Virus record (IMG/VR): IMGVR_UViG_3300037439_000116
Span: 4,562 to 68,561 of that record
DNA from: a virus
Lineage: Duplodnaviria; Caudoviricetes
Length of the DNA stretch: 64,000 nucleotides
Direction: 5' to 3' (one strand)
The notes below the pieces were generated by a model. The model ran no database searches and was not told the DNA's origin. It saw only the letters and a program-made list of their open reading frames with translations. The number at the start of each line of letters is the position of its first letter. Position 1 is the first letter of the stretch. Positions 3,220 to 15,021 of the stretch are shown here, in pieces. The position numbers and the translations under genes are program-made.

Positions 3220-4002
3220 ATGGGACTGAGAGAGATGGCCGAGCAGGCCGGGGGCGCGAGCGGCCGAGAGCCGACGCGGCTGGATATTGAGGCGGCTGAG
3301 CGCAACGGGTTCGCTGCGCCGGACGTGGCCGAGTCGGGAGTGCCGGCGGGGATGGACGTACCGGTGCACGTGGCGTGGTCGCGGGTCATGCAGGACGTGG
3401 AGTGGATCGGCAAGTCGCGCCGGACCGAGTCGGGCGCGAAGTACAACTACCGGGGCATCGACGACGTGATGAATTTCGTCGGGCCGGCGCTGCGCAAGCA
3501 CGGCGTGTTCGTCCTGCCTGCGGGGATCGACCCGACGTACGAGGTCATCAAGACCACCTCGGGATCGGCGATGAACTACTGCCGGGCCACGGTGCGATTC
3601 ACGATCCACGGACCCAAGGGGGACACCATGCTCGCCGAGGTGCTCGGTGAGGGGTTCGACAACGGCGACAAGTCCGGGAGCAAGGCTCAGTCGATCGCGC
3701 TGCGGACGCTGCTGCTGAACGGGCTGGCGATCCAGACCAACGAGCCCGAGCGGGACACCGAGTACGGGGTGCAGCACGAGATCGCGGGGCCGCCGGTGCG
3801 CACGGCGGCTGACTATGCGGCGGAGATCCTGGACTCCGGTACCTCGATCGCGCGGCTCAAGATGATCCGGGCCGAGCTGGACGGGAATGATCGGCTGAAG
3901 ATGGCCATGGTCAGCGACGGGTTCGGGGACGAGCAGATCGAGCTGGGCCGGCTCGTGCGGCGTGTCGGCGCGCGGCGGCTGGCCGGAGAGAAGGGCGACT
4001 GA
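3220..4002 (+). CDS. ERF-family single-strand annealing protein
   Basis: YNYRGIDDVMNFVGPALRKHGV and GEGFDNGDKSGSKAQSIALRTLL; located near YqaJ exonuclease. Confidence 0.85.
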   Translation: MGLREMAEQAGGASGREPTRLDIEAAERNGFAAPDVAESGVPAGMDVPVHVAWSRVMQDVEWIGKSRRTESGAKYNYRGIDDVMNFVGPALRKHGVFVLPAGIDPTYEVIKTTSGSAMNYCRATVRFTIHGPKGDTMLAEVLGEGFDNGDKSGSKAQSIALRTLLLNGLAIQTNEPERDTEYGVQHEIAGPPVRTAADYAAEILDSGTSIARLKMIRAELDGNDRLKMAMVSDGFGDEQIELGRLVRRVGARRLAGEKGD

Positions 4003-4003
4003 C

Positions 4004-4339
4004 GTGGAGTTCGACCCGGTCAAGGAGTACAAGGCGCGGGCGGCGACGCTGGCCGAGATGGTCCAGGCTCAGCGCGCCCACATCGAAGCGATGCCCGACT
4101 GTGGCGGGGCCCCGCTGTGCGTCGGCGCGGAGGAACTGATCGCGCTCGGCGCCATCATCAAGCTGCACCCCAGCTATCCGGTCTCTCTGGCGCTCGCCGC
4201 CGTGGGCGAGCTGCGACTGGCGCAGGACAAGGTGCTCGATCTGGAGGCCCGACTCGCGGCCGCCGAGGCTGAGTTGACCACGTGGCAGGACGCGGCTGAG
4301 GTGCTCGGGCCGGTCGGCGTTCCGGTGGAGCAGTCATGA
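4004..4339 (+). CDS. hypothetical protein
   Basis: GTG start just after ERF stop; ATGA coupling to next gene. Confidence 0.6.
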   Translation: MEFDPVKEYKARAATLAEMVQAQRAHIEAMPDCGGAPLCVGAEELIALGAIIKLHPSYPVSLALAAVGELRLAQDKVLDLEARLAAAEAELTTWQDAAEVLGPVGVPVEQS

Positions 4340-4614
4340 GCGAGATGCCGCCGTACGGAAGGGTGCGCGACAATGCCGAGGCGCGGCTGGCGTTCGCCAA
4401 CGGGACCGAGGGCGACGCCTGGATGAGCGGCTGGTGCCTGCGCGAGGGGGCCTACTGCAAACACGACACCATGCAGCGCGGCGGGGATATCGCGTGTCCG
4501 CTGCTGGACGTGGCGCTGCTGGACGAGAGCACACCGCGGCAGTGGGTCGACCGCACATCGGCACTGGAGCCAGCAATGTACCGATGCACGAAGTACGAGG
4601 CCGAGCAGGTCTGA
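4336..4614 (+). CDS. hypothetical Cys-containing protein
   Basis: 92-aa ORF coupled to upstream gene. Confidence 0.65.
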   Translation: MSEMPPYGRVRDNAEARLAFANGTEGDAWMSGWCLREGAYCKHDTMQRGGDIACPLLDVALLDESTPRQWVDRTSALEPAMYRCTKYEAEQV

Positions 4615-11112: not shown

Positions 11113-11568
11113 GTGACTGATTCTAGTACAAACGCCACCTTGCGCGCTGCCGAGGCGCTCGGGGATCCGGATCGGCTGTTCGACCTCGCGCAGGTCCGGT
11201 TCTTCATGGCCGCGGCCGAGGCGTACGGGTACGAGCGACGCCGGCGGGAGGAGCGCACGCCGAGCCGGCTCAGCTACCTCGCGGGGTTCGAGACCGGCTA
11301 CCGGCAGCGGGTCACCGAGGAGAACGCGGCCTACCCGCCCGAGCCGATGCGGCTGGTCACCACGCACGCGCAGGACGCGGTGCGGGTGCACCGGGAGCGG
11401 GTCGGTGTCGACGTCGTGGCGCCGCGGGAGGGCGACTGGCCGGGGGGCGACGCCGACACGGCGATGGCCCGCTACGGATGGGATGCCGACCGAGATGAGT
11501 CCGAGCCGCTGAAGGTCTCCGTCCGCACGCGCACCGAGCGCGGCCGGCTCGTGTGGGCCGACCAGTGA
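11113..11568 (+). CDS. hypothetical protein
   Basis: AGGAG RBS then GTG; GTGA coupling to methyltransferase. Confidence 0.7.
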   Translation: MTDSSTNATLRAAEALGDPDRLFDLAQVRFFMAAAEAYGYERRRREERTPSRLSYLAGFETGYRQRVTEENAAYPPEPMRLVTTHAQDAVRVHRERVGVDVVAPREGDWPGGDADTAMARYGWDADRDESEPLKVSVRTRTERGRLVWADQ

Positions 11569-13538
11569 CCGCGCCTGGGCCTGCGTGCGCCTGCTCAGGT
11601 GCTGAGACGACGCTGGTCAGCCTGTTCGACGGGATCGGCGGCTTCCCGCTCGCCTTCTCCTCGGCCGGCGTGCGGACCGTGGCCACGGTCGAGATCGACA
11701 AGGCAGCGGCCGGCGTGGCCGCGCTGCACTTCCCCCAAGCCCACCACTTCGCCGACGTCACGGAGGTGACCGCGGATGACATCCTCGCCGCCGGATTCTG
11801 CCCTGCCCATGGAGTTCTCACTGCCGGATGGCCCTGCCAGGGCAATTCGGTAGCAGGAAAACGAGGCGGCATGGCCGATCCTCGTTCGGGCCTCTGGCGT
11901 GATGTGGTCCGATTGCTGGGCGACGTGCGGCCGGCATGGTTTGTCGGCGAGAACGTTCCCGGGCTGCTGACCGTCAATAAAGGCGACGACATGCACGTCG
12001 TCATGTCGGACCTTGAATCGCTGGGTTACTTGGTAGAATTCGGCATTCATGATGCCCAGTTTTTTGGAGTACCCCAGCGACGCCGAAGGCTGGTTTTCAC
12101 GTGCCGAAACCTGGACCGTTTACTCGCGCAGAAGACGATTTCATCCGCGCTCACCTTGGCTCAATGCCTCACCGAGACATCGCTGATGATATTTCTCGTT
12201 CAGTCTCGGGGGTACGGAAAAGGGTCTGCGCCTTGGGTCTCTCTCGAAGCCTGCGTCGATGGACTCCAGCGGAGGATGACGCAATTCGCGATGCTGCGCG
12301 AGGCGGCGAGCGACTGGTCGACCTGGCTCAGCGTCTTGACCGGGGACTCAGTGAAGCGAGCGCTCGCGTCCGGCATCTCGGACTCGCCCCATGGCGACAG
12401 CATCGGCCGCGCCCTCGTCTCACCAAAGGCGGGCACGTCATCGCCGGATACGACCGCGAGCGAAACCGGTACTTACTTGAGCACCGAGTCGTCATGGCGG
12501 GAGCTACTGGCCGAGCTCTTCGAGATGGCGAAGTCGTCCATCACATCTCCACCGACAAGCTGGACAACCGGATCGAGAACCTTCACCTCTGCGCGGATGC
12601 TGCTGAGCATCAGCGCATACACCGCAGCCTTGACGCTCTCGTGCCCGAGCTTCTCGCGGCCCGCATCATCCGCTTCAACCGCGATCGGAGTGCTTACGAG
12701 TTATGCCAGATCCACAGGTGACAGCCTTCTTGCGGGAATGGACGGGTTCAACGACATCGTGGGACTCGACGCCGCCGCCAATGATCTCAGCGTCGCTCTC
12801 GGACATCTTGGAGACAGCGCCGGACCTGCCGAGGTACTGCTTGAGCCCGCGCGCGGCGGCGGGCATCCTGCGGCGAGCGGCGCGAAGCGAACGGGTACTC
12901 CCGGTAGTGCTTCAAGCAGCGTTGGAGTCGCTGGCAAAGGACTGCCAGAGCTAGCCCCGACCCTCCAGGGCGGCGGAAAGCGTGGCTTCCGAGTGGATGC
13001 TGAAACGGCCGCCGGCGGCGGTCTGATCACAGCACCGCAGGTGGTCAACGCGTTGACCCACAACAGCATCGTGGGGCTGGACGACAACACCGCTGAGGGT
13101 GCCGACGCCAGCGAGGATGAGACCGGGCGTGGCACGTCACTGGTCGCGTTCGGACTGCGCGCCAATCCCGGCGGGGTGGGGCAGGGGCACAACACCAACT
13201 ACGTCCCCGTTGCGTTCGGGCACAGGCAGGGACTCGACCCCCAGGCATCCGAGGACGTCACGCCGACCCTGCGCACCGGCGGTGGCGGGGCAGGGGTCTC
13301 GGTCGCTGCCGCAGTGCGGCGGCTGACGCCAGTCGAGTGCGAGCGGCTCCAAGGCTTCCCGGACGGGTGGACAGCGAAGCGGGCCGAACTCGTACTGTCG
13401 GGCAACCGGTGGACCGCGTCCGGCGTGGTCTCGGCGGCGTCGGACTCGGCGCGGTACCGGCAGCTCGGCAACTCGATCGCCGTGCCGGTGTTCGCGTGGG
13501 TCGCCCAGCGGATGGGGGGCGTCCGTGGTGATGCCTGA
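11565..13538 (+). CDS. dcm: C5-cytosine DNA methyltransferase with very long variable region
   Basis: Motif I LFDGIGGF, IV GWPCQGNS, VI ENVPG, VIII PQRRRRLVF, IX RRLTPVECERLQGFP, X RQLGNSIAVPV. Confidence 0.9.
   Translation: MTAPGPACACSGAETTLVSLFDGIGGFPLAFSSAGVRTVATVEIDKAAAGVAALHFPQAHHFADVTEVTADDILAAGFCPAHGVLTAGWPCQGNSVAGKRGGMADPRSGLWRDVVRLLGDVRPAWFVGENVPGLLTVNKGDDMHVVMSDLESLGYLVEFGIHDAQFFGVPQRRRRLVFTCRNLDRLLAQKTISSALTLAQCLTETSLMIFLVQSRGYGKGSAPWVSLEACVDGLQRRMTQFAMLREAASDWSTWLSVLTGDSVKRALASGISDSPHGDSIGRALVSPKAGTSSPDTTASETGTYLSTESSWRELLAELFEMAKSSITSPPTSWTTGSRTFTSARMLLSISAYTAALTLSCPSFSRPASSASTAIGVLTSYARSTGDSLLAGMDGFNDIVGLDAAANDLSVALGHLGDSAGPAEVLLEPARGGGHPAASGAKRTGTPGSASSSVGVAGKGLPELAPTLQGGGKRGFRVDAETAAGGGLITAPQVVNALTHNSIVGLDDNTAEGADASEDETGRGTSLVAFGLRANPGGVGQGHNTNYVPVAFGHRQGLDPQASEDVTPTLRTGGGGAGVSVAAAVRRLTPVECERLQGFPDGWTAKRAELVLSGNRWTASGVVSAASDSARYRQLGNSIAVPVFAWVAQRMGGVRGDA
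12101..12721 (+). CDS. HNH homing endonuclease with N-terminal Myb/HTH-like repeats, nested in the methyltransferase in another frame
   Basis: EHRVVM...EVVHHISTDKLDNRIENLHLC...HQRIH; repeats FTRAEDDFIR and WTPAEDDAIR. Confidence 0.85.
   Translation: MPKPGPFTRAEDDFIRAHLGSMPHRDIADDISRSVSGVRKRVCALGLSRSLRRWTPAEDDAIRDAARGGERLVDLAQRLDRGLSEASARVRHLGLAPWRQHRPRPRLTKGGHVIAGYDRERNRYLLEHRVVMAGATGRALRDGEVVHHISTDKLDNRIENLHLCADAAEHQRIHRSLDALVPELLAARIIRFNRDRSAYELCQIHR
12703..12954 (+). CDS. small protein nested in the methyltransferase in the third frame (possible accessory/beta polypeptide)
   Basis: SLSDILE..PRYCLSPRAAAGILRRA..LP..LQAALE, a motif I recognise from ORFs overlapping C5 MTase genes; start coupled to HNH stop. 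Confidence 0.6.
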   Translation: MPDPQVTAFLREWTGSTTSWDSTPPPMISASLSDILETAPDLPRYCLSPRAAAGILRRAARSERVLPVVLQAALESLAKDCQS

Positions 13539-15021
13539 GGACCACACCCCCGAGTTATGGGAAGCGGATCTCGACCCCGACGGAAACGTGCTGGATCAGG
13601 ACGAGGTCTACGGCGAGGATGTCGCGCCACATGTCACGGAGGAGGATGTCGCCGGCGCGGCGCCGGAGGACGCCATCGCTGCGCGGTACCGGCTACCCGA
13701 GGAGTTCTGGGGTGCGCGGGAGATGTTCAAGGCGATCCGGCAGGCGGCATGGGCCTCACAGACCCACCCGGACGCGGTGCTGGCGTGCGTGCTCACCCGC
13801 GCCTCGGGGGCGGTCGGGCACCAGGTGCTCTTCGACTCGGGCAAGGGCTCGCCGGGCACGCTGTCGCTGTTCGCCTGCCTGCTCGCTCCCTCGGGCATCG
13901 GCAAGAGTGAGGCCTATGGGGCGTCGACCACGCTGGTCCGGCTGCCGTCGCACCTGACCGACGAGTCCGGCTACGCGAATCAGGACATCTTCCGCGATGG
14001 CCTCGGCATCGGCACCGGCGAGGGGCTGGCCGAGGCGTACATGGGCGCGGTCGAACGCGAGACCGGCAAGCTGGTGGCCAAGGGCCGCGGCAAGCAGATG
14101 GAGCCCGAAATGGTCAAGGTGCGCGCTGTCGTGCGGCACCGGGCGTTCTTCTTCGTCGACGAGGGCGAGACGCTGACCAAGCTGATGAAGGAGCGGCAGG
14201 GCTCCACGCTCGGGCCGACCCTGCGGACCGCATGGTCCGGCGGCACGCTCGGGCAGGCCAACGCCTCGGAGGACCGGTTCCGCTTCGTGCCGGCCCGCTC
14301 GTACTCCATGGGCATCGCCATCGGCTACCAGCCCGAGACCGCGGTGGCCATGCTGTCCGACGTCGGGCCCGGCACGCCGCAGCGGTTCCTGTGGTTCGGC
14401 GCCCAGGACACCGAGATGCCGGCCGAGATGCACGAGTGGCCTGAGCACTTGACCCTGCCGCCGGAGGGCATGGGCGACGGCATCATCCGGTTCCCGATCG
14501 AGATCAAGCGGTGGCTGCGCGCGCAGACCCGGGGCAAGCACCGCGGCGAGATCGAGATCGACCCGATGGACTCGCACGAGCCGCTGATGCGCTGCAAGCT
14601 GGCCGCGCTGCTCTGCTACCTGGACGGCCGGTGGGACGTCTCGCGCGATGACTGGATTCTCGGCGGCATGATCTGGTCCGTCTCCTGCGCGATCCGCGAC
14701 CGGCTGATCCGGCACCGGGACACTGAGGCCCAGCGCCGGGCCGAGAAGATCCGCGAAGAGCGGCTCTCCGAGGCGGAGGCTGTGGAGATCCTCAAGGTCA
14801 CCGTCTCGGCCGACGTGGAGCGGGTGGCTCGCAACCTGCCGGGCATCTCGGACCGCATGATTGAGCGCGGCGACCGGCCCAAGCGCTACCTGATCAAGAA
14901 GAACATCGGGCGCGACAAGGGGATCTTCGACGCTGCCGTCAGTCACGCTGTGCAACGGGGCTGGCTGTACGAGCGGGACGGCGAACTGCTGGCCGGATTT
15001 GAGGAGCCACCGTCTAGATGA
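13531..15021 (+). CDS. DUF3987/YfjI-like P-loop ATPase, probable replication helicase/initiator
   Basis: LLAPSGIGKS Walker A, FFVDEGE Walker B, GSTLGPTLRTAWSG, QRFLW; followed by AT-rich non-coding region. Confidence 0.7.
   Translation: MPEDHTPELWEADLDPDGNVLDQDEVYGEDVAPHVTEEDVAGAAPEDAIAARYRLPEEFWGAREMFKAIRQAAWASQTHPDAVLACVLTRASGAVGHQVLFDSGKGSPGTLSLFACLLAPSGIGKSEAYGASTTLVRLPSHLTDESGYANQDIFRDGLGIGTGEGLAEAYMGAVERETGKLVAKGRGKQMEPEMVKVRAVVRHRAFFFVDEGETLTKLMKERQGSTLGPTLRTAWSGGTLGQANASEDRFRFVPARSYSMGIAIGYQPETAVAMLSDVGPGTPQRFLWFGAQDTEMPAEMHEWPEHLTLPPEGMGDGIIRFPIEIKRWLRAQTRGKHRGEIEIDPMDSHEPLMRCKLAALLCYLDGRWDVSRDDWILGGMIWSVSCAIRDRLIRHRDTEAQRRAEKIREERLSEAEAVEILKVTVSADVERVARNLPGISDRMIERGDRPKRYLIKKNIGRDKGIFDAAVSHAVQRGWLYERDGELLAGFEEPPSR

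Follow-up and report, generated by a model that had tools for sequence, protein, structure and literature searches.

Two insertions in actinobacteriophage DNA methylases, the ShiLan domain and the Pacc40 gp60 insertion, have been described as hidden out-of-frame HNH endonucleases (Gosselin et al. 2023, PMC9957025; Arsenault et al. 2025, PMC11855218). The locus analysed here lies in a 64,000-nt stretch of a Caudoviricetes virus record (IMGVR_UViG_3300037439_000116, positions 4,562 to 68,561), referred to below as the window, and resembles both: a methylase insert of about 200 codons brings no stop into the host frame, the HNH gene is read in another frame, no intron or intein signature is found, the element is patchy among close relatives, and straight-through translation is proposed. 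The HNH lineages differ, with zinc fingers plus HNH in 195 aa for ShiLan and two HTH/Myb-like repeats plus HNH_3 in 206 aa for the window. A tblastn search of the window HNH against 50,697 phage records revealed no homology to the ShiLan HNH; full-length matches were confined to nine Cluster J phages (E ≤ 1e-8), with partial ones besides. By its published description, the ShiLan HNH gene is further set apart in starting 18 bp into the insert and having its stop in the last 4 nt, with no ribosome-binding site seen, whereas in the window the start lies at the junction itself, a Shine-Dalgarno (SD)-like run stands in motif VIII, and a 79-nt tail begins a third-frame host ORF. This kind of hidden HNH element was first published in 2025, and the window copy adds a third overlapping frame to it.

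In M.EcoHK31I, a C5 methyltransferase (MTase), the alpha gene also contains the coding sequence of the beta polypeptide, read in a different frame (PMC2836561). There, as in the window, a small alternative-frame ORF carries a conserved MTase element that is absent from the main frame, but that element is motif IX in M.EcoHK31I, whereas in the window motif IX belongs to the main frame and the nested ORF holds the start of the target-recognition domain (TRD). M.EcoHK31I has been proven to require two polypeptides, and we infer the same requirement for the window. The T4 seg and mob genes and Aeh1 mobE in nrdA are, like the window HNH gene, intron-less homing endonuclease genes in or beside a conserved gene, with co-conversion of the flanks; they leave the host gene split or untouched, whereas the window host frame is overprinted across the whole endonuclease gene. 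The MTase/HNH loci of Cluster J phages (Thibault gp102-105; Schatzie 116-118; Yeet, HokkenD, Constella and others) hold a homologous HNH, of 52.5% amino acid identity, at the identical site of a homologous MTase, and share with the window the stop-free host frame and an equivalent third-frame ORF (Thibault gp104). They differ from the window in that their annotation gives separate fragments or an unresolved intron, and the downstream parts of their MTases carry extra frame breaks.

The MTase gene of the window, the insert and the endonuclease are laid out as follows.
11553 to 13538, + strand: C5 DNA MTase ORF, frame 0, 661 aa (ORF list; PF00145, 3.2e-52)
11553 to 12098, + strand: N-terminal half of the MTase with motifs I, IV, VI and VIII (phrog_116/363 DNA methyltransferase, 1e-52)
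11625, + strand: motif I, FDGIGG (motif scan of the MTase frame, as for all motifs)
11832, + strand: motif IV, PCQGNS
11949, + strand: motif VI, ENVPG
12075, + strand: motif VIII, QRRRR
12099 to 12800, + strand: mobile insert, comprising the HNH ORF and the 79-nt tail; 702 nt, 234 stop-free MTase-frame codons (alignment with insert-free relatives)
12101 to 12721, + strand: gene for a homing-type HNH endonuclease, frame +2 relative to the MTase, GTG start, 206 aa (PF13392 HNH_3, 4.2e-10)
12957 to 13538, + strand: C-terminal part of the MTase, frame 0, with the remaining TRD and motifs IX and X (phrog_16528, 7.6e-28)
13317, + strand: motif IX, RRLTPVE, frame 0
13461, + strand: motif X, QLGNS, frame 0

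The C5 MTase motif set, namely I, IV (PCQ), VI (ENV), VIII (QxRxR), IX and X, is complete in the window. A Pfam search placed PF00145 on the two ends alone of the 661-aa ORF. The N-terminal half had a pLDDT of 77-90 in the AF2 model; the model of the whole product, with a 9-row alignment, had a mean pLDDT of 49.8, a quality that does not allow the loop between motif VIII and the remaining enzyme to be assessed. That loop is about 290 aa long and not under selection, and it might impair folding.

The junctions were set, as the preliminary description of this DNA had proposed, by alignment with insert-free homologues (Omega gp127, L014 and 59 viral loci), which placed the insert at 12099-12800. 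The HNH ORF leaves about 2 nt of the insert before its start and 79 nt after its stop. The 206-aa HNH does lie, as first described, wholly inside the MTase ORF, in another frame and just after motif VIII; its HNH_3 core spans residues 128-165, and it matches several PHROG HNH families. Of the two Myb-like repeats reported at the same time, the repeats themselves are present as two tandem N-terminal units, each about 45 aa long, with 42% identity to one another (E 8e-6), but the Myb label derives solely from the pattern (F/W)TxAEDDxIR, phrog_323 (4e-12) and a non-significant PDB match to MYB3 (E 0.78). The region evolves as HNH-coding sequence, with a codon-position divergence of 0.434/0.356/0.52, and the GC-phase plot over it is ambiguous in the window. 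Full-length homologues occupy the identical site in at least 18 loci. A common layout was found in 22 of 24 loci with a full-length HNH (locus GC 44-69%): the MTase-frame ORF spans the HNH gene, which starts about 25 nt past the QRRRR codons, and a third-frame ATG precedes the HNH stop by at least 16-20 nt.

The insert adds no stop to the MTase frame and its length is divisible by three, as is likewise the case in 19 of 19 relatives. Read in that frame, it contains 27% Ser+Thr by composition, compared with 9% and 13% in the flanks, and the open, Ser/Thr-rich frame first described across the HNH gene is thereby borne out. Over HNH genes of 40-63% GC, the MTase frame was free of stops in all 19 related loci; permutation of synonymous codons gave P = 0.0000-0.052 per locus, values that are not independent because the loci are related. 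When the HNH protein and its codon usage were held fixed, 1.4% of the permutations of the window kept the MTase frame stop-free. The same frame is also open over the third-frame ORF in 18/18 loci (P = 0.005-0.70, with the same dependence between loci). Selection holds the MTase frame stop-free across the HNH gene in all 19 loci tested, and the frame is therefore apparently translated straight through. The frame had been said to resume beyond the HNH gene to motifs IX and X: both motifs are found there, but the unselected shadow extends also over 12796-12954. The proposal that dual coding spares the host gene is supported by the selected, stop-free frame of the 19 loci, by the patchy distribution in Cluster J and by the lack of intron and intein signatures.

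The open frame could in principle be a by-product of high GC in a dead MTase gene. The window has a GC content of 69% and abundant long spurious ORFs, and damage is plain in some relatives, with a truncated gp102 in Thibault, a frameshift behind TLQGGG in Schatzie, and disrupted loci in L099 and L110. We regard a dead gene as extremely improbable, given that the window retains each of the six catalytic motifs intact and that the frame stays open where the HNH gene has only 40-49% GC (L109, L020, L107 and L016; permutation P 0.0004-0.05).

No group I or group II intron was matched in the window (Rfam, E ≤ 10), and no Rfam family whatsoever in 12 related loci (E ≤ 0.1). A Pfam search of the 661-aa product (E ≤ 0.1) found DNA_methylase alone and no Hint or intein family, and an HNH that is out of frame with the host protein does not fit an intein. 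The earlier statements that the MTase frame bears no intein signature and that no splicing element is present both withstood these searches. Phage group I introns often carry HNH genes, which counts towards the insert being a self-splicing group I-like intron with an HNH ORF, the open MTase frame being incidental and the mature mRNA lacking the insert. Spliced introns do occur in Cluster J phages, in genes for capsid and tail (PMC3706429), and the GenBank annotators of Schatzie were 'unable to determine intron boundaries'. We nevertheless consider an intron very unlikely: besides the Rfam results, the insert has only about 2 + 79 nt beyond the HNH ORF, the tail has a weak +1-frame periodicity (codon-position divergence, invaded loci), and an intron requires no length divisible by three and no stop-free host frame, yet both occur in 19/19 loci. 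The +1 ORF as the true MTase continuation after intron removal was rejected as a candidate; the C-terminal part is back in frame 0, and insert-free genes share the +1 offset. Within-locus nucleotide comparison found no significant similarity that would make the tail a duplicate of the upstream exon. HMMER alignments hint at a similarity between the tail and the +1 reading of that exon.

The third frame, with its 83-aa ORF, had been missed in the preliminary description. Its features and the candidate start signals are these.
12084 to 12089, + strand: CGAAGG, SD-like purine run formed by the two final Arg codons of motif VIII, 11 nt upstream of the HNH GTG
12687 to 12690, + strand: GGAG, 12 nt 5' of the third-frame ATG ((A)GGAG about 10-12 nt upstream in most relatives)
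12703 to 12954, + strand: third-frame (+1) ORF, 83 aa, with its ATG inside the HNH 3' end (ORF list; profile matches)
12796 to 12951, + strand: segment with purifying selection on the +1 frame and not on the MTase frame (codon-position divergence)

The 83-aa ORF encodes a leader (MPDPQ..) and, as its conserved segment, the TRD start (SLSDILE..GILRRA), which reads SLSDILE..PRYCLSPRAAAGILRRA..LPxxLxxAL. A profile of this segment matched 3887 database clusters; tblastn of the ORF against phage records returned no match at 1e-3, though homologues exist, the query being short. Codon-position divergence over 12796-12951 was 0.376/0.298/0.578 in 18 invaded loci, and the MTase-frame reading of this segment, GHLGDSAGPAEVLLEP.., is a shadow. 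The highest per-phase GC (0.81) in the region of the 83-aa ORF falls on the third codon position of the third frame. A small nested ORF in another frame is thus under its own purifying selection, as in an EcoHK31I-type gene.

The frame switch is also found where the insert is not. The codon position that varies most shifts from frame 0 to +1 and back to 0 across 59 non-redundant insert-free viral loci, and likewise in two subfamilies; the switch occurs at ..VFIVG/SLSDILE and lasts about 150 nt. The MTase motifs all share one frame in about 70 viral loci, with the TRD-start segment always in +1, and in a few relatives, such as L015 and P0042/43/74, motif IX is also in the +1 frame. The HNH gene is located exactly at the 0 to +1 switch point, and because the switch is already present in insert-free genes, it landed on the dual-coded junction of a two-frame gene. 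About 24 nt of dual-coded, strongly conserved sequence make up this insertion site, with an insert-free junction of the type ..TTCATTGTCGGACATCTTGGAGAC.. in a relative. On balance we lean towards the view that the whole phage C5-MTase family of which this gene is a member is a two-frame gene, with about 50 codons of TRD start in +1 and the annotated frame there an unselected shadow (about 70 viral loci, GC 40-74%), and that the HNH cassette targets the dual-coded junction and is interlocked with its host, using the motif VIII Arg codons as a ribosome-binding site and supplying a start codon and leader for the +1 product.

The 83-aa +1 protein may be a separate small subunit in the manner of the beta polypeptide of M.EcoHK31I. 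When the N-terminal half, the C-terminal part and the 83-aa protein were predicted as a complex, the score was 0.33 against 0.00 for the best control, the runs agreed in at least 51% of contacts and the partner pLDDT was at least 62; the mark applied is reached by 58/80 solved complexes and 2/110 mismatched pairs, but at 0.60 or under by only 7 of the 80 solved complexes and by both mismatches. The prediction thus lends the association weak support, and since structures exist for C5 MTases that carry the TRD-start segment in cis, the pass may simply reflect these. At the +1 switch of insert-free genes neither a universal start codon nor a slippery site was found, which weakens the reading as a separate subunit, and codon-position data revealed no +1 constraint upstream of SLSDILE in these genes. 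A long upstream +1 ORF under selection in insert-free genes was also considered and rejected, the permutation being mostly non-significant and biased by the choice of region.

Programmed frame changes, +1 after motif VIII and -1 about 150 nt on, could instead join the +1 segment into a single MTase polypeptide. Insert-free genes do switch the selected frame from 0 to +1 and back, and no start codon is obvious at the switch; rare fused genes (P0055, P0154) hold the TRD-start segment in frame between motif VIII and the remainder. We judge this distinctly unlikely: no slippery motif is conserved between subfamilies, two successive frameshifts would yield little product, and invaded alleles put 700 nt between motif VIII and the segment, which there has its own ATG and GGAG.

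The conserved ATG with GGAG at the HNH 3' end would also fit an insertion that splits the MTase into separately translated pieces, in the style of M.AquI or Aeh1 NrdA/mobE, the read-through protein being an irrelevant by-product. Split C5 MTases are active (PMC2836561, PMC3404938), and the restarted third-frame ORF extends to 211-234 aa in P0012 and P0014, reaching motif IX in P0014. The restarted ORF of the window, however, stops after 83 aa, leaving motifs IX and X in frame 0 with no start codon nearby, and the avoidance of frame-0 stops over about 860 nt has no explanation if the N-terminal piece may end anywhere. A split enzyme is accordingly unlikely.

An SD-like 4-mer is present in the motif VIII Arg codons of 15/18 invaded loci, compared with 7/50 insert-free loci (Fisher test, 2e-7, on loci that are related and so not independent). 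The spacing of 11-14 nt from this run to the HNH start is long, and the start codon is GTG in the window and ATG in all relatives examined. The third-frame ATG is formed by NTA-TGC in 18/18 loci, while the HNH residue at that position varies between L, I and V. Judged from these signals, the HNH cassette would take the motif VIII Arg codons as a putative ribosome-binding site and would give the +1 segment its start codon.

Nine Cluster J mycobacteriophages carry the HNH gene, and Omega, Porcelain and Lucky2013 lack it. Identity between Schatzie and Omega is 95-100% outside L001 2507-3690, a foreign tract of about 1.2 kb that resembles co-conversion. From the patchy distribution and this tract, the HNH gene is judged to be a mobile cassette. 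A scan of contigs with the window HNH gave partial matches to the HNH core only. Among sequencing runs, one DNA run of a sediment metagenome contains this DNA and may be where it came from; no RNA run containing it is listed.

We consider it probable that a homing-type HNH cassette sits directly after motif VIII of this phage C5 MTase gene and persists with no splicing element because each of three overlapping frames is kept in a usable state. With the MTase frame stop-free through the 702-nt insert, ribosomes would read from motifs I-VIII to motifs IX-X and produce one 661-aa protein with a long, poorly conserved loop, which we expect to be active. The HNH would be translated from its own start by way of the SD-like AGG/AGA Arg codons of motif VIII, and would cut insert-free alleles. 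The ATG in the last HNH codons, with GGAG about 12 nt upstream, would start the 83-aa +1 protein that carries the TRD start, and this third product would bind the long MTase.

Overprinting with a readable host frame is a third mode, besides introns and inteins, by which a homing endonuclease gene can reside inside a host gene, and it is backed here by clear selection statistics across many divergent phages. In this MTase family, about 50 aa of the annotated protein are really coded in another frame, and gene callers therefore make many chimeric 'hypothetical proteins' from the +1 frame. If the two-frame family is real, its EcoHK31I-like or frame-hopping methyltransferases would form a large class that has so far escaped cataloguing, and the cassette would be a selfish element coding in three frames simultaneously. 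The locus offers a compact test system for nested-gene initiation, for the tolerance of an enzyme to a junk loop, and for a selfish element acting as an expression signal of its host.

The GC content of the window is 69%, and its C5 DNA methyltransferase (MTase) locus is made up of the following features:

11553-13538, + strand: C5 MTase ORF (661 aa), both ends matching PF00145 (3.2e-52)
all 5' of nt 12098, + strand: MTase motifs I, IV, VI and VIII
12099-12800, + strand: insert as read in the MTase frame (234 codons, stop-free)
12101-12721, + strand: HNH ORF (206 aa), nested in the MTase ORF in another frame, with an HNH_3 core (4.2e-10)
12703-12954, + strand: 83-aa ORF in the third (+1) frame, its ATG within the last HNH codons
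13317 and 13461, + strand: MTase motifs IX and X

The middle of the 661-aa MTase had no family match in Pfam, which matched only its ends. As the preliminary description had it, the HNH ORF lies wholly inside the MTase ORF, whose frame stays open across it as Ser/Thr-rich text (27% Ser+Thr, compared with 9% and 13% on its two sides) and then resumes to motifs IX and X. These observations were confirmed in every particular, including two N-terminal repeats in the HNH protein (42% identical to one another), for which the label 'Myb-like' describes a sequence pattern only. An AF2 model of the 661-aa product was of too low quality for judging the insert loop. The last 14 nt of the MTase ORF, stop codon included, are shared with a 498-aa ORF (13525-15021).

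No intron was matched by Rfam in the window (E<=10), and 12 related loci gave no Rfam match of any kind (E<=0.1). Because the insert holds about 2 nt before the HNH start and 79 nt after its stop, there is no space for a ribozyme outside the HNH ORF. An intron requires neither a stop-free host frame nor a length divisible by three. Neither a Hint nor an intein domain was found by Pfam, and the HNH does not share the MTase frame, in keeping with the earlier statement that intein signatures and splicing elements are absent.

Among phage records, the closest come from nine Cluster J mycobacteriophages, Thibault and Schatzie included. These have an HNH homologue (52.5% amino acid identity) at the corresponding site of a homologous MTase, and the GenBank annotators of Schatzie remarked of the locus 'unable to determine intron boundaries'. 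About 20 more full-length HNH copies, of metagenomic or viral-contig origin, came from the protein and contig collections searched. Three features recur in 22 of 24 loci (44-69% GC): the HNH starts about 25 nt 3' of the motif VIII (QRRRR) codons, is wholly covered by the MTase-frame ORF, and has a third-frame ATG shortly 5' of its stop. Synonymous codons were shuffled with the HNH protein and codon usage of each locus fixed. The MTase frame was stop-free across the HNH in 19/19 loci, with a chance of 0.0000-0.052 per locus, values that cannot simply be multiplied as the loci are related. The set includes HNH genes of 40-49% GC, a range in which open alternative frames are rare. That all 19 are stop-free even so argues that the open frame is not due to chance and that selection holds it readable through the insert. 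These results support the preliminary interpretation of a homing-type HNH element that spares its host gene by dual coding, with no splicing element. Over the first 20 HNH codons (12101-12160 and relatives), change at the three codon positions was 0.369/0.295/0.321, with no excess at the third, and CQRVDHILQxKTISSALTxAQCL, the peptide read over them in the MTase frame, is conserved. Both observations hint at added constraint where the insert begins.

The 83-aa ORF contains SLSDILE..PRYCLSPRAAAGILRRA..LPxxLxxAL, presumably the equivalent of the 'L.diLe....kYxLs' block at the start of the target-recognition domain (TRD) in ordinary, Dcm-type C5 MTases. It is kept in all relatives at 41-53% identity, a level similar to that of the HNH (45-56%). 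Its ATG is created by NTA-TGC in 18/18 loci, the HNH residue there being Leu, Ile or Val, and a GGAG lies about 10-12 nt upstream. The cassette would thereby supply ATG, GGAG and a 31-codon leader to the host +1 segment. At the other end of the cassette, an SD-like purine 4-mer was present in the motif VIII arginine codons of 15/18 invaded versus 7/50 insert-free loci (Fisher 2e-7, the samples not being independent). In the window the run is CGAAGG, 11 nt 5' of the HNH GTG; the HNH apparently borrows these host codons, within the co-converted flank, as a predicted ribosome-binding site.

Downstream of the insert, divergence at +1 codon positions 1/2/3 in 18 invaded loci was 0.376/0.298/0.578, and therefore bears the coding signature of the +1 frame; the least variable position was the third of the MTase frame. 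Per-phase GC in the window segment was likewise highest at the +1-frame third position. The MTase frame is also open over this segment in 18/18 invaded loci (permutation P 0.005-0.70).

A profile of the 83-aa ORF matched 3887 clusters among 1.84 billion representatives. Among the top 150 matches, about 40 were 80-120-aa ORFs aligned from residue 1; the longer matches were mostly +1-frame gene calls within C5-MTase genes. Two of the longer matches (P0055 and P0154) are MTases of a rare type lacking the HNH, with a leader-like stretch and an SLxxVLE..GILRRA segment continuing in frame from motif VIII. Apparently they arose when loss of an HNH joined the frames.

Of 80 viral loci fetched with the segment, about 70 (GC 40-74%) lacked the HNH. 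In essentially all of these, a single frame holds motifs IV, VI, VIII, IX and X, and the segment is in +1, 85-97 nt 3' of QRRRR. For 59 non-redundant insert-free loci, and for each of two subfamilies on its own, the codon position that varied most was used to tell which frame is under selection. The pattern was clear: selection acted on the MTase frame as far as ..VFIVG, on +1 over a stretch of about 150 nt beginning at SLSDILE and ending at the +1 stop, and on the MTase frame again through motif X; 5' of SLSDILE the +1 frame showed no constraint of its own. Since the switch also occurs in insert-free loci, the family appears to have a two-frame gene whether the HNH is present or not; by these codon patterns, the HNH sits exactly on its short dual-coded junction. 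As the most conserved nucleotide stretch, the junction is a plausible homing site. No universal start codon or slippery site for the +1 segment was seen in insert-free genes.

A complex prediction for the MTase N-terminal half, C-terminal part and 83-aa protein scored 0.33 (best control 0.00), with at least 51% of contacts in agreement between runs and partner pLDDT of at least 62. The mark was reached by 58/80 solved complexes and 2/110 mismatched pairs, scores of 0.60 or less at the mark coming from 7/80 solved complexes and both mismatches. The model hints that the 83-aa protein could join the two MTase parts; the pass may instead be recall of solved MTases carrying the segment in cis.

Nesting of a subunit in an alternative frame of a C5-MTase gene has a precedent in M.EcoHK31I: its alpha gene also encodes, in a different frame, the beta chain, which carries motif IX (PMC2836561). 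Like M.EcoHK31I, an insert-free MTase of 59.5% GC (L015:2395-4227), with two ORFs (611 and 554 codons) that overlap, has motif IX in +1 beside an SLSEVLE..GILRRA segment, and motifs I-VIII and X in frame 0; this layout is common to many database gene calls (P0042, P0043, P0074, P0061). In many Cluster A1 mycobacteriophages (e.g. Yokurt 89/90, Yecey3 85/86, ToneTone), a single C5-MTase match covers two 'DNA methylase' features; this may be another case of two-frame coding, or else reflect the short ORF to which PMC9957025 refers.

The HNH is missing from Omega, Porcelain and Lucky2013. Schatzie is 95-100% identical to Omega on either side of a divergent tract (L001 2507 to about 3690), in which identity drops to 50-62% along the N-terminal half of the MTase; the insert comes next. 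A homing or recombination event that imported a long upstream tract would fit this pattern. Cluster J phage MTases may be partly decayed: an in-frame stop in Omega (L003:2481-3785) separates gp127 from gp128, the conserved TRD piece PVAALTANGVGTCGADDNQAQAGH sits in yet another frame, and in Schatzie (L001:3900-4004) a 1-nt indel follows TLQGGG. Elsewhere, a metagenomic MTase gene that also has the HNH described here (L010; L021 likewise) contains a further out-of-frame HNH ORF (221 aa, L010:4824-5489), located 3' of motif IX and 5' of motif X, its 879-aa MTase frame open over both inserts. In L024, a Cys-rich HNH-like domain (about 3680-4300) is inserted in frame in the TRD between two ..THSLxGEGFDxSE.. 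copies, suggesting a duplicated flank.

The ShiLan domain and Pacc40 insertion follow the same principle, as described by Gosselin et al. 2023 (PMC9957025) and Arsenault et al. 2025 (PMC11855218): in each, the methylase gene of an actinophage has an insert free of stops that hides an out-of-frame HNH and bears no signature of an intron or intein. The window element differs in its HNH lineage, in the placement of the HNH directly at the junction, in the 79-nt tail that restarts a third-frame host ORF, and in its SD-like signal, no such ribosome-binding site being reported for the ShiLan element in the 2025 paper. It is a well-supported variation on the hidden-HNH kind published in 2025, with an EcoHK31I-like nested frame in addition. 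Hidden-HNH overprinting as a principle was already known.
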